A DNA stretch of 64,000 bases from an uncultured beta proteobacterium (GCA_963695915.1 CAVOIO010000034.1:15654-79653), one strand, 5' to 3'. Shown: positions 499-62,240, numbered from the stretch's first letter. A program made the numbers and translations. Notes: generated by a model not told the origin, from the sequence alone.

Positions 499-2352
499 AT
501 GGCCGAAGAAAAACCAAACAACCCCCGCCTCCGTCGATACGACGGAATTCGCGCGCACGCTCGCGGAAATTGCGCTGCGCAGCAGCCATCTCTTCAAGGA
601 ACACCTCGCAGAACAGTCGAAGGAGTCCGGCGAGGAACCGGTGGACGAACTCGGCGTCGGCAAGGCTTTCACCGACCTGGCTGCGAAGCTGATGACCGAC
701 CCGTTCAAGCTCGCCGAGGCCGGGATGCGCATGTGGCAGGACTACTTCATGTTGTGGCAGAACACCATGAAGAGGGCCATGGGCGAAGAATCCGCACCGG
801 TGGTGGAAGCTCCCAAGTCCGACAACCGCTTCCGCAGCGAGCTTTGGCAGAACAACCTGGTTTTCGATTACATCAAGCAGTCCTACCTGATCGCCGCGCA
901 GAACATCCAGAAGACCGTCTCCGAAGTCGAAGGCCTCGACGCGCAGACTGCGCGCAAGGTGAAGTTCTTCACCCGCCAGTACGTGGACGCGCTGGCCCCG
1001 ACCAATTTCGTGATGACCAATCCCGAGGTGCTGAAGACCACGGTAGAGACCGGGGGGAAGAACCTGCTCGACGGTCTCAACCACCTGCTCCACGACCTCG
1101 AACGCGGCCACGGCAAGCTGGCGATCAGCATGACCGACTACAAGGCGTTCAAGATGGGCGAAAACGTCGCCACCACGCCCGGGAAAGGTCGTCCACCAGA
1201 ACGATCTGATGCAGTTGATCCAGTATCAGCCGGCCACGACCGAGGTTTACCAGACGCCGCTGCTGATCATTCCGCCATGGATCAACAAGTACTACATCCT
1301 CGACCTGCGGCAGAAGAACTCGTTTATCAAGTGGGCAGTGGACCAGGGCATCACCGTGTTCGTGGTTTCCTGGGTCAATCCCGGCAAGGAACTCGCGAAC
1401 AAGGGTTTCGAGGACTACATGCTGGAAGGCCCGCTGGCGGCGCTGGATGCGGTGGAGAAGGCGACCGGCGAGCGTGAAGTCAACATGATCGGCTACTGCC
1501 TGGGTGGCACGCTCACCGCATCGGCGCTCGCCTGGATGGCGGCAAAGGGACAGTCGCGGGTTAAGAGCGTGACGTTCTTCACCGCGCTCCTGGATTTTTC
1601 CGAACCCGGCGAACTCGGCGTGTTCGTGGACGAAGGCGTGCTTTCCAACCTTGAAAAGAAAATGGAGAGCCGCGGCTATCTCGAAGGCGCGGAGATGGCC
1701 GGCACGTTCAACATGCTGCGAGCCAACGACCTGATCTGGTCGTTCGTGGTGAACAACTATCTGCTCGGCAAGGACCCGTTCCCGTTCGACCTGTTGTATT
1801 GGAATTCGGACTCCACCCGCATGCCGGCGAAAATGCACACCTTCTACCTGCGCAACATGTACATCAGGAACAAGTTGCGCGAACCCGGCGGAATCACGCT
1901 TGCCGGCGTGCCGATTGACCTGTCCAAAATCGACATTCCCACGTATTTCATCTCCACGGTCGAGGACCACATCGCACCGTGGAAGTGCACTTATCTCGGC
2001 GCCCGGTTGCTCAAGGGTCCTGTCCGCTTCGTGCTTGGCGGCTCCGGGCCACATAGCCGGCATCGTCAACCCGCCGGCGGCGAACAAGTACTGGTACTGG
2101 ACCAACGAGAAGCTGCGCGACAGCGCCGACGAATGGCTCTCCACCGCGGAGAAGCACGAAGGCTCGTGGTGGAACGACTGGGGCAACTGGCTGGCCGGCT
2201 TCGGCGGCGACAAGGTTCCCGCCCGCGTTCCCGGCAAAGGCGGGCTGAAAGTCATCGAGGACGCGCCGGGCACTTACGCGAGCTTCAGGCTCGATGCGGA
2301 GCCGGCCGATCCGCCGACGAAACCATCAAGACAAAAAACCAGACGGCGTTAA
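499..2352 (+). pseudogene. phaC: class I poly(3-hydroxyalkanoate) synthase PhaC, reading frame broken 3 times
   Basis: ATG 499 (MAEEKPNN). Frame changes near 520 (C-run), 1190 (TTPGK|[13 protein letters not shown]) and 2050 (VLGGSG|HIAGIVNPP). Lipase box [18 protein letters not shown] and C-terminal GSWWNDW are present. Pieces are ORFs 641-1477, 1209-2447 and 1900-2352. Confidence 0.9.
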
Positions 2353-2417
2353 CACGAAGGTGCACGAAAAAAAGAACAAGGAACACGAAGTACGGCAAAA
2401 GTGATTCTTCGTGTCGA
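2351..2417. repeat. weak member of the tandem-repeat hairpin family (ACACGAAG-type units)
   Basis: aacacgaag gtgcacgaaa ... gaacacgaag directly after the phaC stop, with a short complementary cttcgtgt at 2408-2415. The right arm is much shorter than in the other elements. Confidence 0.3.
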
Positions 2418-2453
2418 GCGCGGTCTGGCGGGCTGCGCGAAGCCTGAAACAGA

Positions 2454-3420
2454 CTAGAGCCACTTTGCCTTTCTGAACCGGTAGAAGAGATAGCCGTCTA
2501 TCGCCACCATTACCGCCACCGTCAGCGGGTAGCCCAGGCTCCAGTTCAGTTCCGGCATGTTGTCGAAGTTCATGCCGTAAACGCCCGCGATCATGGTGGG
2601 CACCGCGACCAGCGCGGCATACCCGGCCAAACGCTTGGTGACCTCGTTTTCCTGGATGGTCAGAAGCGACAGGTTCACCGATATCGCGGTGGTGACCATT
2701 TCCCGCAGAATGTCTATCGACTGGTTCACCCGGGCCAGGTGGTCGTAAACATCGCGGAAATACTCCTGGAGCCCCGCGCAAAGCTGCGGCACCCGGCCGC
2801 CGTAAAGTTTGCTGCTCGCCTCCAGAAGCGGCCCGGCGGCGTGCTTGAGGGTCATCAGTTTCTGCTTCAGGACGTACAGGGATTCAATGATCGCGCGGTT
2901 GTTTTGCCCGGAGAATATTCGCTTTTCGACTTCTTCGAGCTCGCCCTCAAGAGCGTCGAGCACGGGGAAGTAGCGGTCGACCACGGCGTCCATGATCGCG
3001 TAGAGCACATACGCCGAGCCGTGGCGCAGCAAGTCCGGCTCGCGTTCGCTGCGGGCGCGCACGTCGGCAAATCCCCGTTCGGTGTGGCTGCGAACCGAGA
3101 GTACGTAGTTGGGGCCGACGAATATGTCGACTTCGCCGACTTTCAGCTCGTCAGCCCGCAAGCTCCACGGTGTGAAGCACGATGAACAGCGAATCGCCGT
3201 ATTCCTCGATCTTGGGCCGCTGATGGCCGTGTCGCGCGTCCTCGACCGCAAGTTCGTGCAGTCCGAACTCTTGCTGCATCGTTTCGAGTTCTTCCAGGGT
3301 CGGCTCATACAGCGCGACCCAGACAAAACACTCCGGCCGGCGGACATACTCGTGGATCTCCTGCGGCTGAATATCGGCGAGCTTCCGCCCTTCCTCGTAT
3401 GCGACGCAGTTGACCAGCAT
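2454..3420 (-). pseudogene. corA: CorA Mg2+/Co2+ transporter, one frame change
   Basis: N-terminal part MLVNCVAYEEGRKL...FIVLHTVEL (ORF 3151-3453). C-terminal part ...VGEVDIFVGPNYVLSV...YGMNFDNMPEL... with two C-terminal TM helices (ORF 2454-3551). GMN motif present. Junction is near 3160. Confidence 0.9.
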
Positions 3421-3547
3421 GGCAATCTCCTTGCGGGCATCGTAGCACCGCACAAGGAAAGCCGAGGCAAATGGCGGGTTCCGTGATGGTCGGATGGCGT
3501 GGCTGCGGTAGTGCTATTGGTTGGTTCTTCTCCGTGTATTCCGTGGT

Positions 3548-5729: not shown

Positions 5730-8700
5730 ATGCAAGAAGTCACATTGGACGACAAGTACGCTTCCGATCAGGGGCGCGTTTATCTGACCGGCATCCAGGC
5801 GCTGGTGCGCCTGGCCCTGGTCCAGCGTCGGCGCGATCTGGCGGCAGGGCTCAATACCGCCGGCTTCATCTCCGGCTATCGCGGCTCGCCGTTGGGCGGA
5901 CTCGACGAAGCGCTGTGGAAGGCAGCCAAGCACCTCGAAGCGCATCACGTCAAATTCCAGCCCGGCGTCAACGAAGAACTTGCCGCCACCGCCGTGTGGG
6001 GCACGCAGCAGGTTCACCTGATCGGCGAGTCGGATTACGACGGGGTGTTCGCCATGTGGTACGGCAAGGGACCCGGCGTGGACCGTTGCGGCGATGTGTT
6101 CAAGCACATGAACTTCGGCGGCACTTCGAAGCATGGCGGCGTGCTGCTGGTCGCGGGCGATGACCACGGTGCCTACTCCTCGACGCTCCCGCACCAGAGC
6201 GATCACCTGTTCTCGGCCTCGATGATCCCGGTCCTGTACCCGTGCAACGTGCACGAATACATCGAGCTGGGATTGCATGGCTGGGCCATGTCGCGGTTTT
6301 CCGGATGCGCGGTCGGTTTCAAGGCGCTGGCCGACACCGTCGAGTCGTCCGCTTCGATCGAGGCCGACCCGTTTCGCATCCAGACCCGCGTGCCGGAGGA
6401 TTTCGTGATGCCGGAGGGCGGACTGAACGGCCGGCTGTCCGGCGATCTGCTCGGCCTGCAGGCGCGCAAGCAGGAGGCGCTGATGCAGGATTACAAGATC
6501 TACGCGGCCATGGCCTACGCGCGGTTGAATCATCTGAACCGCACCACCATCGATTCGCCCAAGGCGCGGCTCGGCATCATCGCTTCGGGCAAGTCGTACA
6601 TGGACGTGCTGGAGGCGCTGGAGGAATTGGGCATAACCGAGCGCAACGCCGCCGAAATCGGCGTTCGCCTCTTCAAGGTCTCGATGCCCTGGCCGCTGGA
6701 GCCGGACGGGGTGCGCGAATTCGCGAAGGGGCTGGAAGAAATCCTGGTGGTCGAGGAAAAGCGCCAGATGGTCGAGTACCAGCTCAAGGAGCAGCTCTAC
6801 AACTGGCATCCCGACGTGCGCCCACGGGTCATCGGCAAGTTCGACGATCAGGGCGAATGGGTGCACCCGCGCGGCGAATGGCTGCTCCCCGCCAAGGCCG
6901 ATTTCTCCATCGCGCAGATCGCCCGCGTCATCGCCGGACGCATCGGGCGTTTTCACCAGAGCGACCTCATCAAGGCGCGGCTCGCCTTCCTGGAGGCAAA
7001 AGAGGCGGTGCTGAACAAGGCGGTGAACACGCCGGTGCGCCCGCCGTACTACTGCTCGGGATGCCCGCACAATACCTCGACCAAAGTGCCCGAGGGCAGT
7101 CTGGCGCTGGCCGGCATCGGCTGCCACGTGATGGCGACCGTGATCTACCCGGAGCAGAACAAGAGCCCGACGCACATGGGTGGCGAGGGCGCGCCGTGGA
7201 TCGGACAGGCGCCGTTCTCGAAGCGCACGCACATCTTTGCCAATCTCGGCGACGGCACCTATTTCCATTCCGGCTCGCTTGCGATCCGGGCCGCGCTCGC
7301 AGCCAGGGTCAACATCACCTACAAGATCCTGTACAACGATGCCGTGGCGATGACCGGCGGGCAGCCGGTCGACGGGCAAATTTCGGTGCCGATGATTGCG
7401 CAGCAGATGGCGGCCGAAGGCGTCGCGCGCATCGCGGTCGTAACGGAAGACCTCGCGCGCTACGAAGACCGCTCGCAATTACCGGCGCTGGTCACGCTGC
7501 ATGACCGCAAGGACATGGAAGCGGTGCAACGGGAACTCAGGGAAGTTCGCGGCGTTTCAGTGCTGATCTACGACCAGACCTGTGCGGCGGAAAAACGCCG
7601 CCGCCGCAAGAAAGGCGAGTACCCGAAGGCCACGCAGCGGGTATTCATCAACGAAGCCGTCTGCGAAGGCTGCGGCGACTGCGGCGTACAGTCGAACTGC
7701 ACTTCGATCCTGCCGATGGAAACCGAGTTTGGGCGCAAGCGCGCGATCGACCAGTCCTCCTGCAACCAGGACTATTCCTGCGTCAAAGGCTTTTGTCCGA
7801 GCTTCGTGACCGTGGAAGGCGGCACGCCGAGGAAATCGCGCGCGGGAAGACGTGAGACAGCCGCGCCGCTGGCGCCGCTGCCGGAACCGGCTACCGCAAC
7901 GCTCGCCGAAACGCCTTACAACATCCTGATCACGGGAATCGGCGGCACCGGCGTCATCACCATCGGCGCGCTGCTGGGCATGGCCGCGCATCTGGAGGGC
8001 AAGGGCACCTCGGCGCTGGACATGACCGGAATGTCGCAGAAGAACGGCGCCGTCACTTCACACGTTCGCATCGCCCGCACGCCGGCCGGCATCCGCGCGC
8101 AACGCATCGCTACCGGCGAGGCCGACCTGATCCTCGGCTGCGACATGCTGACCGCCGGCGCACACGATGCCATTTCCAAGACCCGGCCCGGGCGCACGGT
8201 GGCGGTGATCAACATGCACCAGCAGCCCCCCGGCCAGTTCGCCCAGAATCCCGACTGGCAGTTCCCCGCAGAAGAAATCCGCGCGCTGATCGGTGAATCG
8301 GTCGACGGCCGCGCACATTTCATCGAGGCCACCCGGCTCGCCACTGCCCTGCTCGGGCGACTCGATCGCCACCAACCTGTTCATGCTCGGCTTCGCCTTC
8401 CAGAACGGTCTGATTCCACTGCAGCAGGCCTCGATCCTGCGCGCGATCGAGTTGAACGCCGTGTCCGTCGACGCCAACAAGCAGGCGTTCGACTGGGGGC
8501 GCCGCGCCGCGGTCGATCTCGACGCAAGTCGAGTCGATTGCCACACCCGCCCAGCCGGTGGTGGTGCAGATGCCGCAGAACCTCGAGACGCTGCTGCGCC
8601 GGCGCATCGCCTTCCTGACCGACTACCAGGACGCGGCCTATGCGAAGCGTTACGAGACCCTGGTCGACAAGGTCCGCCGTGCCGAAGCGCGAATTGGCAA

Positions 8701-9232
8701 GGGCGATGCGCTGACCAGGGCGGTCGCGCGATACCTTTCCAAGCTGATGGCCTACAAGGACGAGTACGAAGTCGCCCGGCTTTACGCGAATGGCGATTTC
8801 GAGAAGCGGCTGAACGACGCATTCGAAGGCGAGTTCAAACTGAAGTACAACCTCGCGCCGCCGCTACTGGCGAAACGCGACGCGCAGGGCCGGCTCGTCA
8901 AGTCGCAGTACGGCGCCTGGATGGGACATGCGTTCCGCTTGCTGGCCCCCTTCAAGCGCCTGCGCGGCACCGTCCTCGATCCATTCGGCCGTACCGCCGA
9001 GAGAAGGATGGAGCGCGGGCTGATCCGCGATTACGAAGCCTTGATTGAAGAGATCGCGGGCGCGTTGTCGAAGGACAATCATGAGATCGCAGTCGCGCTG
9101 GCCAGCCTGCCGGAACGCATCCGCGGTTTCGGCCATGTGAAGGAACGCAATGTCGAGGCGGTCGCAGCGGAACGCCAGGCCTTGCTCGCCCGCTTCCGCG
9201 CCCTGGCGGCCGAGGTCGAACATGCCGCGTGA
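5730..9232 (+). pseudogene. indolepyruvate:ferredoxin oxidoreductase-family protein (fused alpha/beta, about 1170 aa), frame broken 2 times
   Basis: AGGAG lies 6 nt before ATG 5730 (MQEVTLDDKY...). TPP-binding GDGTYFHSG and ferredoxin Cys clusters CEGCGDCGVQSNC / CNQDYSCVKGFCPSF are present. Frame changes near 8356 (ALLG|DSIATNLFMLGFAFQ) and 8525 (VDL..|QVESIATPAQPVVVQMPQNLETLL). Confidence 0.85.
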
Positions 9233-9293
9233 TGCGTACGCGTCGCGATTCGGGCAGGAGATCGTGCGAGCGACCAACGGTTTTTGGTTCAAG

Positions 9294-9309
9294 TTTACGT
9301 TAACGTGAA
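9294..9309. promoter_or_regulatory. 16-bp near-palindrome TTTACGTTAACGTGAA upstream of icmF (candidate operator)
   Basis: Perfect core ACGTTAACGT. Located 100 nt upstream of the icmF ATG. Confidence 0.25.
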
Positions 9310-9408
9310 CGTAGGCAATAATGGCTGCCCAGGCGCGATGACCCATTCCGGCGTCAGCGCGGAAATGCCCAGGCCGCGACAGCAACTGCAAACCGACGGG
9401 ACCGCCCC

Positions 9409-12400
9409 ATGACCGATCTCAGCGTACGCACCGCCGATCAAGACAAGCAGGCGAAGAACAAGGTGCGCTTCATCACCGCCGCCAGCCTGTTCGACGGCCA
9501 CGACGCCTCGATCAACATCATGCGCCGCATCCTGCAGGCGAGCGGCGTCGAAGTCATACACCTCGGCCACAATCGTTCGGTGGACGAGATCGTCACCGCC
9601 GCGATTCAGGAAGACGTGCAGGGCATCGCCGTGTCCTCGTACCAGGGCGGACATGTGGAATACTTCAAGTACGCCATCGACCTGCTGCGCGAACGTGGCG
9701 CGAAGGACATCAAGGTGTTCGGCGGCGGCGGCGGGGTGATCGTTCCGGCCGAGATCGACGAACTGCACGGCTACGGCGTGGCGCGCATTTACTCCCCGGA
9801 GGACGGCGCGCGCATGGGTCTGCAGGGAATGATCACGGACATGATCCGCACCGCGGACCGCAACCTCTCCGCAGAGTTGCCGGCGAGCCTCGATGAAGTC
9901 TTCCGCGGCAATTTGCGCGAACTGGCGCGCGTCATCACCGGGCTCGAAAGCGCGACGCTGCCGGAGCCGCTGCGCCAGAAGCTGGCGAAGCGCGCGGCGG
10001 AACATGACAGCGTGCCGGTGCTCGGCATCACCGGGACCGGCGGCTCGGGCAAGTCGTCGCTCACCGACGAACTGATCCGCCGCTTCCGCATCGACCAGGA
10101 CGATGCGCTCAAGATCGCCGTGATTGCCGTAGATCCGTCGCGGCGCAAGACCGGCGGCGCGCTCTTGGGCGACCGCATCCGCATGAATGCGATCAACCAT
10201 CCGAACATCTACATGCGCTCGCTCGCCACCCGGGATGCGGGCAGCGAAATCGCCGCGTGCCTGCCGGACGTAATCGCCGCCTGCAAGTGCGCCGGCTTCG
10301 ACCTGATAATGGTGGAGACTTCCGGCATCGGCCAGGGAGACGCGGCCATCGTCCCGCATGTGGATTTCTCGCTGTACGTGATGACGCCGGAGTTCGGCGC
10401 CGCCAGCCAGCTCGAGAAAATCGACATGCTCGACTTTGCCGACTTCGTCGCGATCAACAAGTTCGACCGCCGCGGCGCGCAGGATGCCCTGCGCGACGTG
10501 CGCAAGCAGGTGCAGCGCAATCGCGGCGCCTTCAAGGAGGCCGCCGAGGCGATGCCGGTATTCGGCACCATTGCCTCGCGGTTCAACGACGACGGCGTGA
10601 CCGCGCTCTATCAGGCAATCGTTGCCGAACTCAGGACCCGCGGGCTCAAGGCCGGCGACGGCAAGCTCAAGCCGACCACCGTAAAGGCTTCGTCGGGGCA
10701 GAACGTTATCGTTCCGCCGGCGCGCGTGCGCTATCTGGCGGAAATTGCCGAAACCGTGCGCGGCTATCACGCCGATGTGGCGAAGCAGACCGGGATTGCG
10801 CGCGAGCGGCAGCATCTGCGGGAAGCAAAGCGGATGCTCCACCTCTCCCCGGCCCTCTCCCCCGCAAGCGGCGGAGAGGGAGTAACGGCGGCGCTGGATG
10901 TGCTCATTGCTGAGCGAGAGAAGACGCTGAGTCCCGAGGCAAGAAAACTGCTGGACGAATGGCCGCAGGTGAAGCAGTCGTATTCAGGTGACGAGCAGGT
11001 CACGAAAACCCGCGATCGCGAGATCCGAACGGTGCTGACGACGACGTCGCTGTCCGGCACCAGGGTGCCGAAGGTGGCGCTGCCTAGGTTCGAGGACGAT
11101 GGCGAAGTCCTCAAATGGCTGATGCGGGAAAACCTGCCCGGCTATTTCCCGTACACGGCGGGCGTGTTCCCGTTCAAACGCGAGAACGAAGACCCGACCC
11201 GGATGTTCGCCGGCGAAGGCGATCCGTTCCGCACCAACGCACGTTTCAAATTTCTGTCCCGGGACATGCCGGCCAAGCGTCTGTCCACCGCGTTCGACTC
11301 GGTGACGCTGTATGGATTCGATCCCCACGAGCGCCCGGACATCTACGGCAAGGTCGGCAACTCCGGCGTGTCGATCGCAACGCTGGACGACATGAAGGTG
11401 CTGTATTCCGGCTTCGACCTATGCGACCCGGCGACTTCGGTGTCGATGACCATCAACGGCCCGGCACCGACCATTCTCGCGATGTTCATCAACACGGCGA
11501 TCGACCAGCAGATCGACAAGTTCGTGGTACAGCATGGCCGTCGACCGAACGAGCAGGAAACCGCGAAGATCCGCGCCTGGACGCAGGAGAATGTGCGCGG
11601 CACCGTGCAGGCCGACATCCTCAAGGAAGACCAGGGGCAGAACACCTGCATTTTCTCCACCGAATTTTCGCTCAAGGTCATGGGTGACATCCAGGAATAC
11701 TTCGTGCGAAACAGGGTGCGCAATTTCTATTCGGTGTCGATCTCCGGCTATCACATCGCCGAGGCGGGCGCGAATCCGATCTCGCAACTTGCCTTCACGC
11801 TGTCGAATGGCTTCACCTTCGTCGAGGCCTATCTGGCCCGCGGCATGAATATCGACGACTTCGCGCCGAACCTGTCGTTCTTCTTCTCTAACGGCATGGA
11901 CCCGGAATACACGGTTCTCGGGCGCGTGGCGCGGCGCATCTGGGCCACGGCGATGAAGAACAAGTACGGCGCCAACGATCGCAGCCAGAAGCTGAAGTAC
12001 CACGTACAGACTTCCGGCCGCTCTCTGCACGCGCAGGAGATCGCGTTCAATGATATCCGCACCACACTGCAGGCGCTGATCGCGGTCTACGACAACTGCA
12101 ATTCGCTGCATACCAACGCCTACGACGAGGCGATCACGACGCCGACTGCCGAATCCGTGCGGCGGGCGCTCGCCATCCAGCTTGTCATCAACCGCGAGTG
12201 GGGCCTGGCGAGGAACGAGAATCCGAACCAGGGTTCGTTCATCATCGACGAACTGACCGATCTAGTGGAAGAAGCGGTACTGCAGGAATTCGAGCGCATC
12301 TCCGAGCGCGGTGGCGTGCTCGGCGCAATGGAAACCGGGTACCAGCGCAGCAAGATCCAGGAAGAATCGATGTACTACGAGCACAAGAAGCATGACGGCT

Positions 12401-16584: not shown

Positions 16585-16585
16585 A

Positions 16586-49426: not shown

Positions 49427-50405
49427 TTGAGATTCTATGACATCTTCAACGGCGACGCCGACGGCATCTGCGCGCCTGCATCAACTGCGACTTGCCGATC
49501 CGCGCGACGCGGAGCTCATTACCGGTGTCAAGCGCGATATCGAGCTGCTCGCTCGCGTGAGCCGCTGGTCCCGGCGATGAAATCACGGTGCTCGACGTTT
49601 CGCTGGAAACGAATCGCAGCGACCTGATGCGCATGCTGGAGGCCGGGGTGCGTTGCCGGTACTTCGATCACCACTTCGCCGGCGCGGTCCCCAGCCATCC
49701 TCTGTTCGACGCGCACATCGATACCGACGCCGTCAGTCTGCACCAGCCTGATCGTCGATCGCTATCTGCGCGGGAAGTACCGGGCATGGGCGATCGTCGC
49801 TGCGTTCGGGGACAATCTGCTGGAATCCGCGCTTGCCGCAGCCGCGAGCCTGCAAATTCCGGCGCACGATCTCGAAGTGCTGCGCGAACTGGGCGAATGC
49901 CTGAACTACAACGCCTACGGAGAATCGGTGGAGGACCTGCATTTTCATCCCGCCGAACTCTATCGGCGCTTGCGCCGCTACGCCGATCCACTGGTGTTTT
50001 GCGCGCACGCTCCCGAATTCGAGGTACTACGCCGTGCCTACGCCGACGACCTTGAGCAGGCGCGCGCGTTGCCGGTGGTGAAGCGAGGTGAGGGCTGCAT
50101 CGCGGTGTTCATGCCGGACGAGGCCTGGAGCCGGCGTGTTTCCGGTGCATTCGCCAACGAACTGTCGCAACGTCATCCGGCACTCGCAGTGGCATTGCTG
50201 GTACGCGCGACAACGCGGGTATCGGGTGAGCCTGCGTGCGCCGCAAAACGCGACGCAGGGAATCGCATCTGGCCCGTCAAGTTCGACTCCGGCAGCGGCC
50301 GGGAACGCGCTGCCGGCATCCAGTTCCTGCCGGATCAGGACGTCGAACGGCTGCTTGAATCGCTCGAACGGGCCTACGCGGCGAAGACCCCGCCACCGAC
50401 GTCTA
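49427..50405 (+). pseudogene. DHH-family phosphoesterase-like protein, frame broken about 5 times; 3' end uncertain
   Basis: LRFYDIFNGDADGICA|LHQLRLADP.., ..RYFDHHFAG.. (DHH motif) and ..AFGDNL... Frame changes near 49475, 49565, 49740, 50205 and 50255. Confidence 0.55.
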
Positions 50406-50434: not shown

Positions 50435-51491
50435 CTATTTCGCCTTGATCTCGGTCCAGATGCGGTTGAGCAGCTGGCGTTCCTTGGGCGTCATGTCCTT
50501 CAACTGCTCCAGCCGCTTCGCCGATTCCGCATCCGGGAATACCGCCTTGTTGTTCTTGATCTCCGGCTTGATGGTCTTCATTGCGTCGGTATTCGGATTG
50601 CCCGAGCCGATCATGTTGGTGAGGTCCGCGGAGTTCTTGCCGTCGAGCATGAAATTGATGAACTGGTGCGCAAGGTCCGGCCGCGGCGCGGTCTTCGCGA
50701 TCACCATCGCGTCCAGCGCCAGCACCGCACCTTCCTTCGGCAGGCTGTGGCGGATGCGGAACTTCTGCTTGGCTTCCTGCGCCCCGAGGTCGGCCTGGAA
50801 GATGTCGTTCGAGTAGCCGTGCACCACCCAGAGATTTCCGGTGGATAAGTTCCTTGATGTAACCCTGCGCCATGAAGGCCGCCCAATAGGGCTTGGCCTT
50901 GACGATGACGTCGCTAGCCTGCTTCCAGTGCTTGGGATCGCGGTCGTTCACCGAGTAACCGAGGTACTTCAGCGCCGCCGCCATCAGCTCGCTCTGGCTG
51001 TCGAGTACGGTCACGCGGCCCTTGATCTTCGCGAGGATCTTGGGGTCGAAGATCACCGCCCAGGAATCGACCGTGATGCCCAGTTCCTTCATCTTCTGCT
51101 CGTTGTAGCCGATCAGCGTGATCGACATCGCGTACGGCGCCGAATACTTGTTGCCCGGGTCGAATTCGGTGTTCAGGTACTGCGGCATGACGTTCTTGAA
51201 GTTGGGGATCTTGCTCTTGTCCAGCGGCTGCAGCCAGCCGGCCTTGGCCATGCCGGCGACGTAGTTCGACGTCGGCACGATGACGTCGTACCCTTTGGCG
51301 CCGGCGGCAAACTTGGCGATCACTTCCTCGTTGTCGCCGAAGTAGTCCTGCACCACCTTGCATTTGCAGGACTTCTCGAAACGCTCCACCGTCTCCGGCG
51401 CGATGTAGTCGTTCCAGTTGTACAGATGCAATTCGTCCTTTGCCAGCGCCGGCAGGCTTGCGAGCAGCAGCAGGGACAGCAGCTTCTTCAT
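50435..51491 (-). pseudogene. potD: spermidine/putrescine ABC transporter substrate-binding protein, one frame change
   Basis: Signal peptide MKKLLSLLLLASLPALA, then ELHLYNWNDYIAPE. Frame change near 50835 (..YIKEL..|..VVHGYSNDIFQA). Confidence 0.85.
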
Positions 51492-51614
51492 GGTCGCTCT
51501 CCGTAGTTGTGGGATACCGATCCTCTAAACGCCTAGGTTATGAAATCACGCCCGCCGCAGTCCAGAGGCTATTCGGAGGATACATCCCGGCGCACCGGCG
51601 ATCCGCGCGGAATC

Positions 51615-52388
51615 TCACTGACTGCGCAGTGCGCCGGGAGACAGCTTCGAGGCGATCAGTATCAGCGCCAACGTCAGCAGCATCAGCAGCGTTGACACGG
51701 CGTTGACTTCGGGCGTCACGGCGATCTTCACCATGGTGTAGATCTGCAACGGCAGTGTGGAGGAACCGACGCCCGCGGTGAAGAAGGTGATGACGAAGTC
51801 GTCGATCGACAGCGTGAACGCCATCAGCGCGCCGGCCACCACCCCAGGCATGATCAGCGGCAGGGTCACCAGGCGAAATGCCTGCCACGGCGTGGCGCCC
51901 AGGTCGCGGGCCGCCTCGGTCAGGCTCTCATCCATGCCGGCGAGCCGCGAGCGCACCACGATGGCGACGAAGCCGACGCAGAAGGCGATGTGGGACAGAA
52001 CGATCGACACCATGCCCAGCGTAATGTTGAGCATGACGAAGAAAATCAGCAGCGAGACGCCCATGAGGATCTCGGGAATCGCGATCGGCGCCAGCACCAG
52101 CACCGGCAGCAGTCGCATCTTGTAGCGGTACATCGCGTAGCCGGCCATGGTGCCGAGGACGGTGGAGACCGCACTTGCGGTCAGCCCGATCACGAGCGAG
52201 TTCCATGCCGCCTTCAGCATCTTTTCGTTGCCGAAGAGCTTCTCGTACCAGGACAGCGTGAAGCCGACCCATTCGGCATTGAGCCGCGAATCGTTGAAGG
52301 AATAGGCGACCACGATCACCAGCGGCGCATACAGAAAAGCGTAGGCAAGGAAGCCGGCAAACCAAAGCCAGGGCGAACGGCGGTTCAT
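51615..52388 (-). CDS. potC: spermidine/putrescine ABC transporter permease PotC
   Basis: MNRRSPWLWFAGFLAYAFLYAPLVIVVAYSFN.. and EAARDLGATPWQAFRLVTLP (EAA loop). 257 aa, intact. The ATG overlaps the potB stop. Confidence 0.9.
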   Translation of the reverse strand: MNRRSPWLWFAGFLAYAFLYAPLVIVVAYSFNDSRLNAEWVGFTLSWYEKLFGNEKMLKAAWNSLVIGLTASAVSTVLGTMAGYAMYRYKMRLLPVLVLAPIAIPEILMGVSLLIFFVMLNITLGMVSIVLSHIAFCVGFVAIVVRSRLAGMDESLTEAARDLGATPWQAFRLVTLPLIMPGVVAGALMAFTLSIDDFVITFFTAGVGSSTLPLQIYTMVKIAVTPEVNAVSTLLMLLTLALILIASKLSPGALRSQ

Positions 52389-53277
52389 ACCCGCGCTCTC
52401 CTGCCCACCCAGGCGGCCAACCCGGCCAGCCCCACCGCCATGACGGTCAGCACCATCGACAGCACGCTCCCGAAGGGCCAGTCGCGGGTGTCGAGAAACT
52501 GCTGCTTGATCACGTTGCCGATCATGATGCCCTCGGTGCCGCCGAGAATGTCGGGAATGGCGAAGATGCCGAGAGCGGGGATGAACACCAGCGCCGCGCC
52601 GGCGTACACCCCCGGCAGCGACAGCGGGAACGTGACCCGCCAGAAGCGCTGCCAGGCGTTCGCGCCCAGGTCCTGCGCGGCATCGAGCAGCGCCGGGTCG
52701 TGCTTCTCCAGGTTGGCGTACAGCGGCAGCACCATGAAAGGCAGGTGCACGTACACCAGGCCGACGATCACCGCGAACGGCGTGAACAACAGCGACACCG
52801 GCTCGAAGCCGAAGAAGCCGATGAACGGCGTTCAGCGCGCGCACGAACACCGACTGCGGCCCGAGGATGATCATCCAGGCGTAGACGCGGATCAGGAAGT
52901 TCGACCAGAACGGCAGGATCACCAGCAGCACCAGCAGGTCGCGGTGTTTTTTCGGGCTGCGGGCGATCAGCATCGACAGCGGGTAGGCGATGACCAGGCA
53001 TACCAGCGTGGTGACCGCCGCGTAGGCGAACGACTTGATGAAAAGCTGGGTGTAGAGGAAATCGGAAAAGAAGCGGCCGTAGTTCTCCGCGGTCAGGTCG
53101 AGATGGCCGCCGGCTTCGTCCTCGTAGAACAGCGGCGCCAGGCCGCCGAACTCGCCAGGGTTGCGGAACGACGCGACCACCATGATCAGCACGGGAATGG
53201 CGAAGAACACCAGCAGATAGGCGAGCGGCGGCCCGCTGATCAGCCACTTGTGCAGGCGGTTCTGTTTACGGTGTCAT
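52385..53277 (-). pseudogene. potB: spermidine/putrescine ABC transporter permease PotB, frame broken 2 times
   Basis: MTP|KQNRLHKWLISGPPLAYLLVFFAIPVL.. and ..DAAQDLGANAWQRFWRVTFP (EAA loop). Frame changes near 53268 and 52830. Confidence 0.85.
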
Positions 53278-53302
53278 TTCTCGCTATGAGAACGGAAACC
53301 GG

Positions 53303-53450
53303 AACCGCCAAGACGCCAAGGCCGAAGAAGACCGAATTGATAATTGGTCATCGCGGATATTCCCTGAGAAGTTCGACCGTGAGATCCATCTCCATTGCCG
53401 TTCGCTCGCGTTTCCTCTGAATTCCTTGCGGCCTTGGCGTCTTGGCGGTT
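53303..53450. repeat. tandem-octamer inverted-repeat element (CGCCAAGA type) filling the potA-potB gap
   Basis: aaccgccaagacgccaaggccg (53303-53324) is a perfect 22-nt reverse complement of 53429-53450 (cggccttggcgtcttggcggtt). The spacer is 94 nt. Confidence 0.9.
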
Positions 53451-53476
53451 CAACTGATCTCCAAGCCGTCAGTCGT

Positions 53477-54556
53477 TCAGAAAATGCCCGGCGTCGTACG
53501 CCAGTTCACCTGTACGTCGTCGCCGGCCTCGAAGAATTTGGTGCGCCCCGCCGCGGAGTTGGGCAGCAGCGCCTCGATGCGCTTGCCGCCGGCAAGCTCG
53601 ACGATGTACACGGTGACGTCGCCGAGATAGAGGAAGTCGTACACCTTGCCTGCAAAACGGTTCAGATCCGGCTCGTCGGGCAGATCGCGGCCGATCGCCA
53701 CTTTCTCGGGACGCAACGCCAGCACGCCCCGCAACCCCGGTTGATCGCCTTCCACGTTGAGCGCGGAAACATCGCCGATGCCGTCGAGATGCACCGTCAT
53801 GCGCTCGCCCTGCGCAGGCCTTGATTTCGCCCTCGAGCAGGTTGCACTGGCCGATGAAGTCGGCGACGAAGCGATTCTTCGGGAAAGCCGTAGATCTTCG
53901 ACGGCTCGTCGATCTGTTCGACCCGCCCCTGGTTCATCACCGCGATCCGGTGCGACAGTGCCAGTGCTTCGCCCTGATCGTGGGTCACGTAAACGAAAGT
54001 GACGCCGATTTCTTTCTGCAGGCCGATCAGTTCGAGCTGCACGCTTTCCTTGAGCTTTGCATCCAGCGCCGCCAGCGGCTCGTCGAGCAGCAGCAGCTTG
54101 GGCCGGTTGATCGAGCGCGCGGGCCACCGCCACGCGCTGCTTCTGGCCGCCGGACAGTTCATTGGGATAGCGCCTGTTCATGCCGGTAAGGCGCACGTCC
54201 TCCAGCGCCTCTTCCACCCGCCGGCTGATTTGCGCCGGGTCCGCCTTCGCCATGCGCAACGGGAAGGCGATGTTGTCTTCGACGTTCATGTGCGGAAACA
54301 GCGCGTAGCTCTGGAACACCGTGTGGATGTTGCGGGCTTCCGGCGGAATGCCGGTCATGTCCTGGCCGTCGACGACGATCCTCCCGGCATCGGGCACGTC
54401 GAATCCGGCGATCATCCTCAACAGTGTGGTCTTGCCGCAGCCCGAGGGGCCCAGCAGGGTGAAGAACTCACCGGCCTCGATGCTGATGCTGACGTCGTTG
54501 ACGGCGGCGAAATCGCCGAAGCGACGGGTGACGTTGCGAATCTCGAGTAGCGCCAT
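53477..54556 (-). pseudogene. potA: spermidine/putrescine ABC transporter ATP-binding protein PotA, frame broken 3 times
   Basis: [36 protein letters not shown] and a C-terminal TOBE-like domain. Frame changes near 54125, 53880 and 53825. Confidence 0.9.
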
Positions 54557-54821: not shown

Positions 54822-56413
54822 CTAGAAGAATACGGCAGCGCGCAGGCTGATTACTTTTTCCGAGTCCTGGCGCGCGTGGCTCCCGCTACATCCAAGGGCG
54901 TCACCGCCTGGGCAGGCGATGTCGAGCTGGGCTTGAACTTGGTGTCGGCATAGTTAAGCATGAACCTGACGTTCGGATTCAGAAGCCAGTTGACAGCCCA
55001 CAGTGAGCGTTTCGGCTTTGTCGACGTTCTGCTCGCGCGAACTCGCCGCCGCTGACACTGATATCGGAGGCATCATAAGAGATAGCCGCACGCCAAGTTG
55101 CCATGCTCCGGGCCCGCTACCGGGCTTGAAGTTGTTGTTCGGCTTGATTCCGGAGAATATGCCGCCGCGATAGACGTCCGACCATTTCTCGCCGGTGATG
55201 TTCCAGATCAGTTCGATGTAGTCGGTGTCCACGTCCCCGACGACCGTTTGGCCTGCTGACTGGTGATTCGCGTCGAAGGACGCGGTCACCATCTCGCCCT
55301 GGAACTTGAACGGGCCACACGCCAGCGCCACTCCAGGCCGGTCATTTCCTTGCTTACGTTGGCGTTGATTTCGTCGGCGGCACCGAAATCGGCTGTCGGC
55401 AAGACTGAGCCACCGATCTGTGCGTCGATAGTACGTTAGCTGAGACCCCGATTCTCGCTGCTGAATCCGACGATCGTCGCTCTGGTCGTGGCGCTGCTGC
55501 CGACGAGGTCTGCGATGAAACCGCCGGCCGGATCTGGTAATGACCGTCGGTGCCCGCCACGCCAAGGTGGACCACGCTGTTCGACATTTTGAAAAGCTGC
55601 GCGGCGTTCATGGTAAGCCGCGCGGCGCTCTGAAAGCCGTCGCCTTCGGACTGCTGTCTCGAATCCTGCTGGAAATGGGACACGGCATAAGTGAGGCCTC
55701 TCGATCGGCTCGCCATGGAGCATCACCCCGAGTTTCTTGGCGGGAACCAACTGGTTCACGTAAGAGCGTTCCATGAAATCGATGTTGTTGGAACTGGTCA
55801 GCTCTTCGAGGCTGAACGGCTGCTTGAAGCGACCCATCCGGAACTGAATCGGCTTGACGTAGCCAAGGTTCAACCATGCAGTATCGATCGATCGCCGCTG
55901 CCTACGAGGTTGGTCACTACCTCATAGGTGATGTCATTGAACATCTTGCCGTTGACGCCAGATCCGCGCGCGGCGAATCTCGAAGCCATCTCCAAGCGAA
56001 GCACTGTCGCGGTCGTTGAATTCACCGTACCCGTCCGGAAGATCCCGGTAGTCGAAATGCAGGCGGCCGACGACGGCGATCGAATGCTGGCCGTCAGCCG
56101 ATTCGACCCTCAGCCCCGGGCCTGGGCTGACCTTGGCGCAAATCTTTTGCCTTGGCTTTTTGCTCCTCCTCGAGCGCCGCGTCGAGCGCTTCCTTGCGCT
56201 TCTCGGCGCGTGCTTCGGTGCGCATTTCCTGGTATTCCTCTTCGGAAATCACGCCCTTGTCGTGCAGCTTTTCGACGATGTCCTCCATGTCGACGGCAAA
56301 CGCCGACAGGCGGAAAGCCACAGAACAGCGCTGCGATCGAGGCGGCGAGGGTGAGGCGTTTCGGCGCCCAGTTCCGGCAGGCTGGAGTTGTTCGTCTTGG
56401 TATTCGATCCCAT
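54822..56413 (-). pseudogene. phosphate-selective porin O/P-family outer-membrane porin, heavily disrupted (at least 8 frame changes)
   Basis: taggagaaatcaATG at 56413. Signal-like KRLTLAASIAALFCG, a helical EDIVEKLHDKGVISEEEYQEMR segment, GYVKPIQFRMGRFKQPFSLEELTSSNNIDFMERS (Porin_O_P core) and the C-terminal ..ISLRAAVFF*. Confidence 0.75.
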
Positions 56414-56619: not shown

Positions 56620-58144
56620 TCAGCCAGGCACGCGATCTGCAAGCAGCAGAACGATCAGGAGGACCGACAGGATTCCGGTCAGCAGGCGGTTGTGGCGCCG
56701 CTGACTTTGCAGCAAAGCATCCATTGCCGCGCGCAGGTCGTTGGCAGGACGATCCGATAGCGCGCGATGCACCAGGCGCGGCAACTGCGGCAGCAGCACC
56801 GCCCATTGCGGCGCCTCGTTGCGCAGGTTGCGCAACAGGCCGCGCCAGCCGACCTGCTCGGACATCCAGCGTTCGAGATAGGGTTTGGCCGTTTTCCACA
56901 GATCCAGGTCGGGATCGAGGTCCCTGCCCAGGCCTTCGATGTTGAGCAGGGTCTTTTGCAGCAGCACCAGTTGCGGCTGGATCTCGATGTTGAAGCGGCG
57001 CGAGGTCTGGAACAGACCGCAGCAGCACCTTGCCGAAGGAAATCTCCTTCAGCGGTTTGTCGAAGATCGGCTCGCACACCGCGCGAATCGCGGTCTCGAA
57101 CTCGTCCACGCGGGTCTGCGGCGGAATCCAGCCGGACTCGATGTGGACCTCCGCCACGCGCCGGTAGTCGCGCCGGAAGAAGGCGAGGAAGTTCTGCGCC
57201 AGGTAATTCTTGTCCACCTCGGTGAGCGTGCCCATGATGCCGAAATCCAGCGCGATGTAACGCCCGTCCGGCGCGACGAAGATGTTGCCGGGATGCATGT
57301 CGGCATGGAAGAAACCGTCGCGGAACACCTGGGTGAAGAAGATCTCGACGCCGGCGCGCGCCAGTTTCGGAATATCGATGCCCTGTTGGCGCAGTCTTTC
57401 GACCTGGCTTACCGGCGTGCCGCTCATGCGCTGCATCACCATGACCTGGCTGCTGCAGAAGTCCCAGAAGATCTCCGGCACCCGCAGGAAGCGGAGAGTT
57501 CGTCGAAGTTGCGGCGCAACTGGCTGGCGTTCGCCGCCTCGCGCAGCAAGTCGAGTTCGTCATTGAGGTGCTTCTCGAACTCGCCGACCACTTCCCGCGG
57601 CTTCAGGCGGCGGCCGTCCTTCCACAGCCGCTCGATCAATCCGGCGGCGACATTGAGCAACGCAATATCTTCGACGATGATTCGGTCAGATCCCCGGCCT
57701 CAGGATCTTCACCGCCACTTCGCGCCCGCCGGGCAGTAACGCGAAATGCACCTGTGCCACCGAGGCGCTGGCGACCGCCACGGCGTCGAAGCGCTCGAAC
57801 ACTTCCGAGGCAGGCTTGCCGTAGGCGCGCTCCAGGGACTGGAACACCTGTTCGGCCGCGAACGGCGGCACCTGGTCCTGTAGTTTCGCCAGTTCGTCGG
57901 CGATGTCGAGCGGGATCAGGTCGCGGCGGGTGGACAGCACCTGGCCGAACTTCACGAATATCGGCCCGAGCGCTTCCAGCGCGAGGCGCAGACGCTCTCC
58001 GCGCGGCCGCTCGAGGCGGCGCCAGAACAGCAGCCCCGCAGTCAACACGCGCAATCCGCGCACCCTGGCATGGCCGAGGAAGAACTCGTCCAGCCCAAAG
58101 CGCAACGAGATGTACACGATCTTGAACAGCCGCAGCAGGTGCAT
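56620..58144 (-). pseudogene. ubiB: ubiquinone biosynthesis regulatory protein kinase UbiB (ABC1 family), frame broken 3 times
   Basis: ..[21 protein letters not shown].., ..ASVAQVHFA.. and ..[13 protein letters not shown]... Frame changes near 57680, 57470 and 57010. Confidence 0.9.
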
Positions 58145-58185
58145 GAAAGGTGACGGCGAGTGCGCCGCGCTTTCCTTATGTTCTT

Positions 58186-58780
58186 CTATCTGCCGCGGAC
58201 CGGCCGCGACAGGCGCTCGATGCGCTTGTCCAGGCGCTCCACGGCATCGCGCAGTTCGTCTACCTCGCGCATGAACTCGGCGGCCTGCAAAGGCGTGACC
58301 AGCATACCGACGTTCTCCTCGGTGAGATATTCGGCGGCGTTTTCGGCCAGGCTCATGGCAGCCTGCTTCGGCCACGCGGCGGCCGCCCGTCCTGCCTGCG
58401 CCATGCGATGCGCCGCGATGTCGCCGACCACCCGGCTCAGGTCCTCCTCCACATCCCAGCGCAGGTTGGATGCGACCTGGGAAATGACCGCGGCAAAATC
58501 GGTATCACCGGTGACTTCGGCCTTGCGCCAGGCTTCCTCGCCGTCCGCCAATACCTCGAGCAGCGTGAGGTGCGTGAGCCGGATCGTCACCGCCGGCGCG
58601 GCTTCCGGCAGCGCCGGCTGCAATCTGCCGTCTGCCGCCACCGCCAACGCCAGCCGGGCCGGAAACACGTCGAAAAGCGCAGTCTTGCCGGCGTGTGCAC
58701 TCAGCTTGGCACGCGCCCACGGCGCGGACTCGAGCAGGTGATTGGCGAATGCGACGAAACGCGGCGGCAAGCATCGGCAT
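58186..58780 (-). pseudogene. ubiJ: SCP2-domain ubiquinone biosynthesis accessory factor UbiJ, one frame change near the 5' end
   Basis: Located between ubiE and ubiB. ..[47 protein letters not shown].. The ATG overlaps the ubiE stop. Confidence 0.7.
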
Positions 58781-59518
58781 CAGATCTTGTGGCCGCGGTG
58801 CAAGCGCCACCACCCCGGCGTTGAGGTTGTAGTACTCGACGCGCGCGCAGCCGGCCTGTTCCATCATCCGCTTAAGTTCTTCCTGTCCGGGATGGCGGCG
58901 AATCGACTCGGCGAGGTAGCGGTAGCTGTCCGCATCGTCGGCTACCAGTTTTCCCAGCAGCGGCAACACCTTGAACGAGTAGCCGTCGTACAGCGGCTTG
59001 AGCGGCTCCCACACCTGCGAGAACTCCAGCACCAGCAGGCGCCCGCCGGTGCGCAGCACGCGCAGCATTTCCGCCAGCGCGGTTTCCTTGTGCGTCATGT
59101 TGCGCAGCCCGAAGCCCACCACCGCGCAATCGAAATAGTCGGCCGGGAACGGCAGGCATTCGGCGTCGCACTGCACCACCGGCACGACACGGCCGCGGTC
59201 GAGCAGCCGGTCGCGCCCGCGCGCGAGCATCTCGCCGTTGATGTCGGTCAGCCACACCTGCCCGCTCGCGCCGACCCGCGCCGCGAACAGCGCGGACAGA
59301 TCCCCGGTGCCGCCGGCCACGTCCAGCACCCGGCCGCCTTCCCTCACCCCGCTCATCTGCACCGCGAAGCGCTTCCACAGCCGGTGCATTCCCGCCGACA
59401 TCAGGTCGTTCATCAGGTCGTAACGCGGCGCCACCGAGCGGAATACGCCGGCGACTTTCTTCGCCTTGTCGTCCTCGGCGACCTGCTGGATATCCGAAGT
59501 CGGTGGTTTTCTTTCCAT
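58780..59518 (-). pseudogene. ubiE: demethylmenaquinone/ubiquinone C-methyltransferase UbiE, one frame change near the 3' end
   Basis: ..[36 protein letters not shown]... Removing one base near 58800 gives ..GVVALHRGHKI*. Confidence 0.9.
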
Positions 59519-60000
59519 TCAGAGCTTCTTCCAGCCGGGTTTGGGTTGAGGCTGGGCAGCGGCCGGCACGACCTCGCGGCTGGCGCCTTCTTTCGCCATC
59601 CGGTCCAAGATATTCCTTCCACAAGCTTTCCTTGTCCACGCCCAGTCCGTAAAGATAGTCCCACGAGTACAGCCCGGTGTCGTGACCATCGCTGAAAACC
59701 AGCCGCACCGCGTAGTTACCCGACCGGCTCGACCGCCGCGATCTCGACGTCCTTCTTGCCGGTCTGCAGCACTTCCTGGCCCGGTCCGTGACCGCGCACC
59801 TCAGCCGATGGCGAGTAAACGCGCAACAGTTCGCACTCCAGGCGGAACGAATTGCCGTCGTCGAACGCGACTTCGAGGACGCGCGACTTCTGATGCAGCT
59901 TGATTTCGGTGGGGCGGGGCGCCCCGGGTTGAAGTCCTGCCACAGGAGTTTCTGGCGACGTCGAATCAGGTGCCCCGTGCTGCCGGGAGCGGGACTGCAT
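59519..60000 (-). pseudogene. DUF971 (gamma-butyrobetaine-hydroxylase-N-like) protein, frame broken 2 times
   Basis: ..EIKLHQKSRVLEVAFDDGNSFRLECELLRVYSPSAEV..|GNYAVRLVFSDGHDTGLYSWDYLY.. The stop lies 0 nt from the ubiE ATG. Confidence 0.65.
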
Positions 60001-60094: not shown

Positions 60095-60127
60095 TGCAAA
60101 CGCTCAAATCCGACTGGTACAGCAGCC

Positions 60128-60815
60128 ATGGCAGCCACCATCCTCGTGGTCGAAGACGAACCGGCAATCCAGGAATTGATTGCCTACAACCTGAAACAGG
60201 CCGGCCACCAGCCATTGCGCGCCGACAACGCCGAGCAGGCGATGAACCTGGTCCAGAACGCGCTTCCCGATCTGGTGCTGCTCGACTGGATGCTGCCCGG
60301 GCAGTCCGGAATCGATTTTGCCCGCAGGCTGCGAAGCGACCGGCGAACCCGGACGGTGCCGATCATCATGCTTACCGCCCGCATCCGACGAGCAGGACAA
60401 GCTGACGGGCCTGGATACGGGTGCGGACGACTACATCACCAAGCCGTTTTCGCCGCGGGAGCTGAACGCGCGCATCAAGGCGGTGTTGCGGCGACGCGCG
60501 CCGCAGATGACCGACGACGTGGTGCAACTCGGCGGACTGAAGCTCGATCCGGCCAGCCACCGCATCTCCGGCAACGGCGACCCGGTGATCCTCGGTCCCA
60601 CCGAATTCCGCTTGCTGCATTTTCTGATGACGCACCCGGAACGCGTGCATTCGCGTACCCAGTTGCTGGACCAGGTTTGGGGCGACCATGTCTTCGTCGA
60701 AGAGCGCACCGTGGACGTGCATATCCGGCGACTGCGCAAGGCGCTCGAACCCTCCCGGCTCGACCGCCTGGTGCAAACCGTGCGCGGTACCGGCTACCGC
60801 TTCTCCGCAACCTGA
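60128..60815 (+). pseudogene. phoB: phosphate-regulon response regulator PhoB, one frame change
   Basis: [33 protein letters not shown]..; ..[26 protein letters not shown]..; winged-helix C-terminus ..VRGTGYRF. Frame change near 60385. Confidence 0.9.
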
Positions 60816-60901
60816 CCTGCGGGGCCCCGCTCCGAATCGGCTCCGGCAAATTCTGGGATAATCCGCCCTGGCTAACCCAGAGGACGGAACGCTTGAAGTC
60901 C

Positions 60902-62240
60902 ATGTGGGGGAGACCCCTCTCCACCGTCGTCCTGATCGGCATTCTGGCGCTGGTCTGCTGGCCGATTCTCGGCAGCGAGGGCGCCTTGCTGGTCCTCGCC
61001 GCGCTCCTTCTGGCTGTGCTTTTCCATCACCTTCTGAATCTCTCGGCGCTCTACCGCTGGCTCCAGAACCCGCGACTCGGAGAACGTTCCAGTGGGCAGC
61101 GGGGCCTGGGAGTATGTGTTCTCGCACCTGCTCAGGATGCTCAAGCAACACGAGCAAAGCGAAGTACGGCTGGGCGAGGCGCTGTCGCGCTTTCAACTCG
61201 CGGGCGCGGCGCTTCCGGACGCGGTGGTGATCCTGGGCGAGGGTGACCGAATCGAATGGTGCAACCCCAAGGCGGAGGACTACTTCGGTCTCGACAACGA
61301 AAGCGACCGCGGCCAGCAGATTACCTACATCCTGCGCCAACCACAGTTCGTCGAACACCTGTCGTCCGCCCATGTCGGTGAGTCGCTGGTGCTGCGGGTT
61401 TCGCGCGAGCTGGACGAGATCGTGCTGTCGGTGCAACTGGTTCCCTACGGCGACCGGCACAAACTCATTCTCGGACGCGACATCACCCGCTGGGAACGGC
61501 TGGAAACGACCCGGCGCGATTTCGTCGCCAACGTTTCGCACGAGTTGCGCACGCCGCTCACCGTGGTCGGCGGATTTCTCGAGACCTTGAGCGACATGAA
61601 AAAGCCGGACCCGGAAATGACGCGGCGCTCGATCATGCTCATGGCGCAGCAAACCAGCCGCATGACGCGGCTGGTGGATGACCTGCTGACATTGTCGCGA
61701 CTGGAGAGCGCGCACAATCCGGTACGCGAAGAGGACGTCAACGTCCCGGACCTCGTCAAGGCGCTGCACCAGGATGCGGTGGCGCTTTCCGCCGGCCGGC
61801 ACAAGCTGCGCGTCGGGCTCGAATCGAATGACTGGCTGAGGGGAAACACCGAGGAACTGCGCAGCGCCTTCGGCAACCTGATCAGCAATGCGGTGCGCTA
61901 TACGCCGGAAAGCGGTGAGGTGGAAATACGCTGGGAAAGGCGCGACGGCGATTCCGTGTTCGCCGTGCGGGACACCGGCATCGGCATCGAGCCGCAGCAC
62001 ATCGACCGCCTGACCGAGCGTTTCTACCGGGTGGATCGCAGCCGCTCGCGCGAAACCGGCGGCACCGGGCTGGGACTGGCAATCGTCAAGCACGTGCTCA
62101 ATCGCCACCAGGCGCGTCTCGAGGTCCAGAGCAGCCTGGGAAGCGGCAGCACCTTCTCGGTAATTTTTCCGGAAACCCGGCGCCTGCCCGCCAAAGGGCC
62201 GGCGGCGGCTTTGGTCCAGGAACCCGCGATTTCCCGTTAG
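60902..62240 (+). pseudogene. phoR: phosphate-regulon sensor histidine kinase PhoR, one frame change
   Basis: Two N-terminal TM helices, a PAS domain, H-box FVANVSHELRTPLT, N-box and G-boxes (DTGIGI, GGTGLGLAIV). Frame change near 61090. Confidence 0.9.

Follow-up and report, generated by a model that had tools for sequence, protein, structure and literature searches.

Frame breaks in 36 genes of a betaproteobacterial contig probably arose when closely related strains were collapsed into one consensus

Is an uncultured betaproteobacterium losing a large part of its genes, or was its sequence broken during assembly? The question is raised by a stretch of 64,000 nucleotides (nt) with 62% G+C (GCA_963695915.1, CAVOIO010000034.1:15654-79653; this whole 64-kb stretch is called the window below), for which a first-pass annotation had reported about 80 single-base frame disruptions in about 36 of 59 genes. 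By aligning intact orthologues to the window in a frameshift-aware manner, we found about 95-100 single-base frame breaks in 36 of about 57 genes, so that the number of broken genes stands while the number of breaks had been set slightly too low. The extra bases are private to the window, are nearly all insertions, avoid homopolymers and coincide with mostly synonymous alternative alleles. With a probability of about 0.85, we consider that these breaks are not mutations but errors made in building a consensus from two close co-occurring strains.

By aceE, the nearest GTDB species representative is a Burkholderiales metagenome-assembled genome (MAG) with only 84% amino-acid identity, followed by Nitrosomonadaceae-like MAGs. 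The closest AceE in a large protein collection (P0001, from a JGI soil-type metagenome) is 96% identical, and an exact look-up of the AceE encoded in the window gave no record. Syntenic DNA of relatives, 78-92% identical to the window, was gathered via P0001 (contig L081), by an exact 28-mer scan of metagenome contigs (17 usable contigs) and via homologues of ior (L110, L111) and potD (L112 to L119). Pairwise BLAST alignments of 31 related contigs were projected at base level onto window coordinates, with reference coverage everywhere outside 12.7-13.6 kb and 62.2-64 kb. Intact orthologues came from 15 or more independent metagenome and MAG contigs, the mgtA reference being that of Cupriavidus necator, and on the nine related contigs with gene calls all orthologues are full length. 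They were aligned by a purpose-written protein-to-DNA aligner that allows for frameshifts, run with the called orthologous proteins at the called gene coordinates. The resulting break positions are approximate for the porin gene, the aceF linker, the HIRAN-domain gene and yggS (Table 1). Compared to the nine contigs with full-length genes, the number of breaks in the window is far above background.

About 90 of the breaks are +1 insertions and 4-7 are -1 deletions, a ratio of roughly 15-20:1. Four deletions are clear (29054, 40443, 53499 and ~41920), and a few more are possible in the porin gene. Inside true coding sequences the frameshift-aware alignments contain no in-frame stop; the stops flagged when stop-to-stop reference open reading frames (ORFs) were used lie upstream of start codons or within antisense ORFs. 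Once repaired, the proteins align end to end with their orthologues at 79-97% identity. The positions named as examples in the first-pass annotation were recovered at or close to the same bases, namely 1190 (here 1188), 20763, 26405 (the aceF linker, net +1), 27665 (~27671) and 44500 (44506-44520). Also present are the artificial fused ORFs that it had listed at 27544-29748, 37892-39769 and 51615-53210, the second of which arises because the pilT break at 38879 fuses pilT and pilU.

Frame breaks are also seen without any alignment to relatives. By using a reference-free Viterbi parse based on codon usage, which permits skips of one or two bases within coding runs, we obtained 38 one-base and 8 two-base skip junctions under a strict penalty and 62 and 18, respectively, under a looser one. 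The repaired runs were translated and scanned against Pfam, and 33 junctions fell inside one uninterrupted domain match, which means that homology continues across the frame change. Examples of such junction-spanning matches are PhaC_N, CorA, POR, ABC_tran, 2-oxoacid_dh, RsfS, RNase_E_G, DnaJ_C, UPF0020, E1-E2_ATPase, Hydrolase, ABC1, Porin_O_P, Response_reg and PhoR. Thus, three independent methods (the Viterbi parse, Pfam on the repaired translations and alignment to relatives) concur on the breaks. Comparing the length of the longest ORFs before and after repair says little, since long antisense ORFs are common at 62% G+C.

For 61 events, the extra base could be placed at base level with good local identity, and wherever a site is well covered by relatives, all or almost all of them lack it. 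The inserted base equals one of its neighbours in 15 of these events, compared to 47% expected (p = 4e-4); in the other 46 it stands alone and differs from both, and only 5 of the 61 lie in runs of three or more. The early claim that most disruptions are single extra bases, many of them outside homopolymers, is thereby borne out. The composition of the inserted bases (G 18, C 16, A 16, T 11) is compatible with the sequence background and with a uniform one, and none of the dinucleotide contexts 5' or 3' of these 61 insertions is enriched. An early impression, based on 18-31 events, that insertions were G/C-rich, created CpG or followed GA was gone with 61 events. The density of events is blocky and depends on position rather than function, with about 6 per kb at 26.4-28.5 kb and at 47.2-50.4 kb as opposed to clean blocks, and the largest gap between events, 11,952 nt, has an estimated probability of ~1e-7 under a uniform rate. 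Partners in the same complex or operon are accordingly found in opposite states, aceE being clean and aceF carrying at least four breaks, livGHMK being clean and livF carrying five.

A reason was suggested by the aligned relatives, which at many sites are divided between two alleles that stand next to each other in the window. At 27979 the relatives have either CGA or CGC and the window has CGAC; at 27989 they have TAC or TAT and the window TACT; at 27797 ACC or ATC and the window ATCC; and at 28020 ATG or ATC and the window ATCG. By removing the inserted bases and realigning all relatives, we measured how often this happens, with random insertions at nearby positions as the null. In 35 of 71 events, at least one relative has the inserted base as its allele at the adjoining site, compared to 15.7 expected, with a value of 35 attained in 0 of 20,000 simulations. 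The match climbs with the number of relatives that cover the site (5/18, 12/28, 8/14 and 10/11), and the last of these classes, with at least nine references, compares to 4.3 expected; this rise suggests that nearly all events are of the doubled-allele kind. Then, by considering the reading frame only and no references at all, we found that swapping the neighbour for the inserted base would be synonymous in 44 of 70 events, compared to 25.4 expected (p = 6e-6). Of the four deletions that could be resolved, two or three likewise fall on sites that are polymorphic among the relatives.

Both alleles of a mostly synonymous single-nucleotide polymorphism (SNP) lying side by side are the mark of a consensus that combines two non-identical haplotypes, and homopolymers would be avoided because a SNP has two different bases as its alleles. 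We propose that two or more co-occurring, closely related strains had their sequence merged into one contig, possibly by a long-read assembler or polisher that collapsed mixed reads, possibly by an overlap-consensus contig merger, between which we do not decide. A gap-friendly alignment may have represented some of the SNPs as an insertion in one haplotype and a deletion in the other, and a consensus rule that keeps both bases would then shift the frame by +1 at each such site. Both bases would occasionally be dropped instead, giving the few -1 events, and stretches drawn from one haplotype only would explain the alternation of clean and dense blocks. A two-haplotype consensus would thus produce one-sided indels, homopolymer avoidance, the relatives' alleles, the synonymous excess and no other damage. 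A comparable effect is described in the Hapo-G paper, according to which haplotypes of heterozygous regions get mixed by local polishers and consensus tools, with broken coding frames as a result (PMC8092372): the mixed consensus matches neither haplotype and can break a frame that is intact in both. However, that work concerns short-read polishing of diploid eukaryote assemblies, whereas here the mixing would be between co-occurring bacterial strains, and the footprint of both alleles being kept is derived from the present sequence.

Several points weigh against this explanation. Only about half of the events are tied to a known alternative allele, which we attribute to the few relatives available at many sites, and a few sites, such as 21827 and 20763, are not polymorphic among the 2-4 relatives there. 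The same strain is absent from the collections searched (best DNA 92% and best AceE protein 96% identical), which left no error-free copy for a direct comparison. The exact footprint of doubled adjacent alleles was not found described in the literature, and we infer from the contig both that the reads came from two haplotypes and that a software step was at fault.

Errors of sequencing are the closest competitor. Watson and Warr are said to have described, in 2019, indel errors that cause frameshifts in long-read (Nanopore or PacBio) assemblies and MAGs. Residual random read errors in a single-strain consensus that was left unpolished or had thin coverage, made for example from error-prone long reads, would be unrelated to polymorphism; they would account for single-base indels private to the window, for a density as uneven as local coverage and for inserted bases whose composition matches that of the sequence. 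Small-indel frameshifts are well known in long-read metagenomics (proovframe preprint, 10.1101/2021.08.23.457338; Sereika et al. 2022, PMC9262707), where single-base indels likewise split conserved genes or fuse neighbours, are spotted by proteins shorter than their homologues and are removed by polishing. Yet those errors are described as concentrated in homopolymers and as including many deletions, nanopore consensus errors being described as homopolymer indels (PMC9262707), whereas the events in the window are nearly all insertions, rarely lie in runs, are depleted in duplications of a neighbour and fall on polymorphic sites. Random insertions are also unlikely to hit the relatives' alleles more than twice as often as the null, and no preference for synonymous alternatives is expected from them, which makes this explanation unlikely. 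An opposite possibility keeps the doubled alleles and takes the insertions as real: recombination with a sister strain followed by faulty heteroduplex or mismatch processing would leave both alleles in tandem and cause a sudden wave of +1 frameshifts, so recently that no other decay would have had time to build up. We regard it as extremely improbable.

Genome decay, as in Mycobacterium leprae, Sodalis and Shigella, combines nonsense mutations, deletions of all sizes and insertion sequence (IS) insertions with a deletional bias and relaxed selection. A window in which 36 of about 57 genes are disrupted, many of them several times, resembles it in the large fraction of genes with broken frames, and massive recent pseudogenisation, in a newly host-restricted or otherwise decaying lineage, had been retained as the alternative by the first-pass annotation. 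It finds little to stand on here: besides the lack of nonsense codons, no transposase family is among the Pfam hits of the repaired translations, and the end-to-end alignments contain no large internal gene deletion. The excess of insertions runs counter to the deletional bias of bacterial pseudogenes, which was reportedly described by Mira, Ochman and Moran in 2001 and by Kuo and Ochman in 2009, and the non-homopolymeric context is unlike replication slippage. Repaired broken genes are no less conserved in amino-acid identity than intact neighbours and give no indication of relaxed selection; against the same references, potB, potD and potA reach 95%, 95% and 94%, compared to 97% for the intact potC, and aceF reaches 92-97%, compared to 96% for the intact aceE. 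The repaired pilT (97%) and pilU (95%) lie in this range as well. As the first-pass annotation had pointed out, essential genes are struck repeatedly (nadD, aceF, ubiB and ubiE with 6, at least 4, 4 and 2 breaks), and they are so next to intact partners. Nor would a mutational process have a reason to insert a synonymous alternative allele beside a SNP site. That nearly all events share the +1 direction might instead point to recoding, by which +1 ribosomal frameshifting, transcriptional slippage or quadruplet decoding would tolerate the extra bases. Programmed +1 frameshifting in prfB and slippage rescue in endosymbionts require long poly(A) tracts or shift sites that are conserved, and orthologues share the shift. 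As in those systems, a full-length product could be made despite one extra or missing base; the window, in contrast, has no shared motif and no slippery or poly(A) tracts, the extra base occurs in none of the orthologues, and some genes would need up to 6-12 shifts, so that we give this idea next to no credence.

Together, the insertion excess, the lack of nonsense codons, the undiminished conservation and the pattern in essential and partner genes support the earlier preference for a sequencing or assembly artefact, which our data sharpen to an artefact probably due to collapsed strains, and not to random read errors or homopolymer errors. In our judgement the breaks are an assembly artefact and no real biological feature, real pseudogenisation being very unlikely. 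In the organism itself, nadD, aceF, ubiB and the other genes of Table 1 are almost certainly intact. This contig is no reliable basis for gene calls, estimates of completeness or pseudogene counts, the same being probably true of the rest of the assembly, and the contig is unsuitable as an argument for genome decay. Three traits make up the footprint: there are only insertions, homopolymers are avoided, and the inserted base is the synonymous alternative allele of its neighbour. This footprint offers a cheap diagnostic that needs no reads; as a quality-control signature, it can tell collapsed-strain errors from platform noise and from true pseudogenes.

Table 1. Features of the window and their frame breaks. 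Coordinates are window positions; fractions give the references that lack the extra base; aa, amino acids; ABC, ATP-binding cassette.
Feature	Coordinates	Strand	Breaks	Positions and remarks
phaC	496..2349	+	3	+1 at ~526, 1188, 2046; 91% identity to L111 PhaC (619 aa), no stops
corA	2457..3420	-	1	+1 at 3153, within Pfam CorA match
ior (indolepyruvate ferredoxin oxidoreductase family)	5730..9229	+	2	+1 at 8354, 8520; base absent in L110 and L111
break-free 12-kb block	8521..20471	.	none	icmF, AMP-binding gene, livG/H/M/K-like genes
livF-like ABC ATPase	20255..21075	+	5	+1 at ~20472, 20657, 20763, 20798, 20859; 3/3
paaK-like AMP-binding gene	21186..22420	+	2	+1 at 21827, 22267
CMD/AhpD-like	22576..23161	+	1	+1 at 22899; 5/5
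aceE	23297..25975	+	none	intact; 4-12 references, no window-private indel; 96% amino-acid identity to P0001/L081
aceF	26164..27490	+	at least 4	net +1 in Ala/Pro linker (26410-26540, site ambiguous); +1 at ~26753, 27217, 27300
nadD	27540..28193	+	6	+1 at ~27671, 27797, 27979, 27989, 28020, 28027
rsfS	28186..28571	+	2	+1 at ~28244, ~28493; 6-9 references
rlmH	28597..29075	+	1	single-base deletion at 29054, near C-terminus
rng (RNase G)	29745..31197	+	1	+1 at 30218, within Pfam RNase_E_G match
cbpA (DnaJ-class)	31734..32669	-	3	+1 at ~31861, 32303, 32366; 2/2
dynamin-like GTPase	33192..35131	-	2	+1 at 34224, 35075
yggU-like	~35150-35440	-	2	+1 at 35324, ~35343
yggT	35447-36018	-	2-3	+1 at 35463, 35493; also 35440 at gene end
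yggS	36968..37776	-	2	+1 at ~37565, ~37703
pilT, pilU	37892..40107	+	1, 2	pilT +1 at 38879; pilU +1 at ~39741, ~39759; 95-97% identity to L117
THUMP methyltransferase	within 40228..41968	-	4	+1 at 40246, ~40728, 40866; -1 at 40443
HIRAN-domain gene	within 40228..41968	-	1	-1 near 41920
mgtA	42416..44959	-	6	+1 at ~42947, 43038, 43333, 44231, 44520, 44662
hydrolase	within 46953..49313	-	3	+1 at 47197, 47327, 47382
ferredoxin	within 46953..49313	-	1	+1 at 47821
MazG-like	within 46953..49313	-	3	+1 at 47917, 48065, 48070
VanZ-like	within 46953..49313	-	3	+1 at 49044, 49179, 49261
DHH/DHHA1-family gene	49427..50392	+	6	+1 at ~49476, 49563, 49727, 50203, 50265, 50280; reference L117, 79% identity
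pot operon (potD, potC, potB)	50438..54556	-	1, none, 1	potD +1 at 50846; potC intact; potB +1 at 52826
potA	within 50438..54556	-	4	+1 at 53812, 53886, 54113; -1 at 53499
phosphate-selective porin	54935..56413	-	~12	rough count (reference only 49% identical); positions approximate; references only 47-49% identical
ubiB	within 56641..59943	-	4	+1 at 57016, 57487, 57501, 57688
ubiJ, ubiE	within 56641..59943	-	1, 2	+1: ubiJ ~58759; ubiE ~58801, 59491
DUF971	within 56641..59943	-	2	+1 at ~59612, ~59718
phoB, phoR	60128..62129	+	1, 1	+1: phoB 60383, phoR ~61078; within Pfam Response_reg and PhoR

In aceF, the base at ~26753 is absent in 16 of 19 references by one comparison and in 16 of 16 by another, and those at ~27217 and ~27300 in 18 of 18 each; the repaired protein is 92-97% identical to its orthologues. 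Each nadD site has its extra base absent in 7-10 of 8-12 references, with 10/12 at ~27672, 10/11 at ~27797 and 8/10 in each of the pairs 27979/27989 and 28020/28027. At the rlmH deletion, all four close relatives carry an additional A, and once two distant references are included the window is one base short compared to 6 of 7. The sites of the pot operon are supported by all of the 5-8 references that cover them, and PotD, once repaired, matches an intact protein of 351 amino acids (P0255) at 97% identity. Two phaC junctions lie within Pfam matches (PhaC_N and Abhydrolase_1) and three of the porin junctions within the Porin_O_P match, and ior is free of breaks over its first 2.6 kb. Intergenic DNA, too, has single extra bases that are private to the window, at 23200, 32713 and 32760 (2-3 of 2-3 references), which suggests that the process is not confined to genes, although natural intergenic indels are also possible there.

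The mgtA gene lies between a UPF0093 gene on one side and an ABC-2 permease gene on the other. Once repaired, its product is 67% identical to Cupriavidus necator MgtA over amino acids 20-866 of 867, with no stops, and C. necator mgtA is also the closest plasmid-borne homologue (66% identity). Four relatives (L112, L115, L117 and L118) lack mgtA at this position, so that the gene was either gained in the lineage of the window or lost from the relatives. The window has an intact copy of the adjacent pair of an ABC ATPase and an ABC-2 permease (44964-46740), which L112 and L115 also have and which L117 and L118 lack; this patchy distribution shows that the neighbourhood is variable among close relatives.

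A segment of ~120 nt (~38 codons) in yggS, at 37440-37560, is absent from the yggS of L096, L112 and L117. Neither terminal repeats nor another copy within the window were found for this segment, which may be a genuine insertion specific to the lineage or a further fault of assembly. Two Peripla_BP_2-like genes stand in tandem (3551-4393 and ~4400-4900); the second appears truncated, and one of its bases, at 4591, is missing in both references. In the whole window (1-64000), no transfer RNA gene and no Rfam match at the gathering threshold was found.

Although aceE is intact, its product has 893 rather than 886 amino acids owing to a Gly/Glu/Arg-rich repeat encoded at ~25440-25480 (REGRGERGEGRGKK), which is common to P0001 and L081 and variable in length among relatives. 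Several indels in the aceE alignments are private to one relative each, and one contig, L108 (Ga0137420_1371207), has 76 gap characters in 2.9 kb of aceE when aligned to 23368-26323, so that it looks like another error-prone record. Finally, imperfect runs of a heptamer repeat (CATTCAC / TTCACYC) lie in the aceE-aceF spacer (26095-26150) and upstream of the CMD gene (22515-22560), and they are also found, in variable copy number, in relatives.

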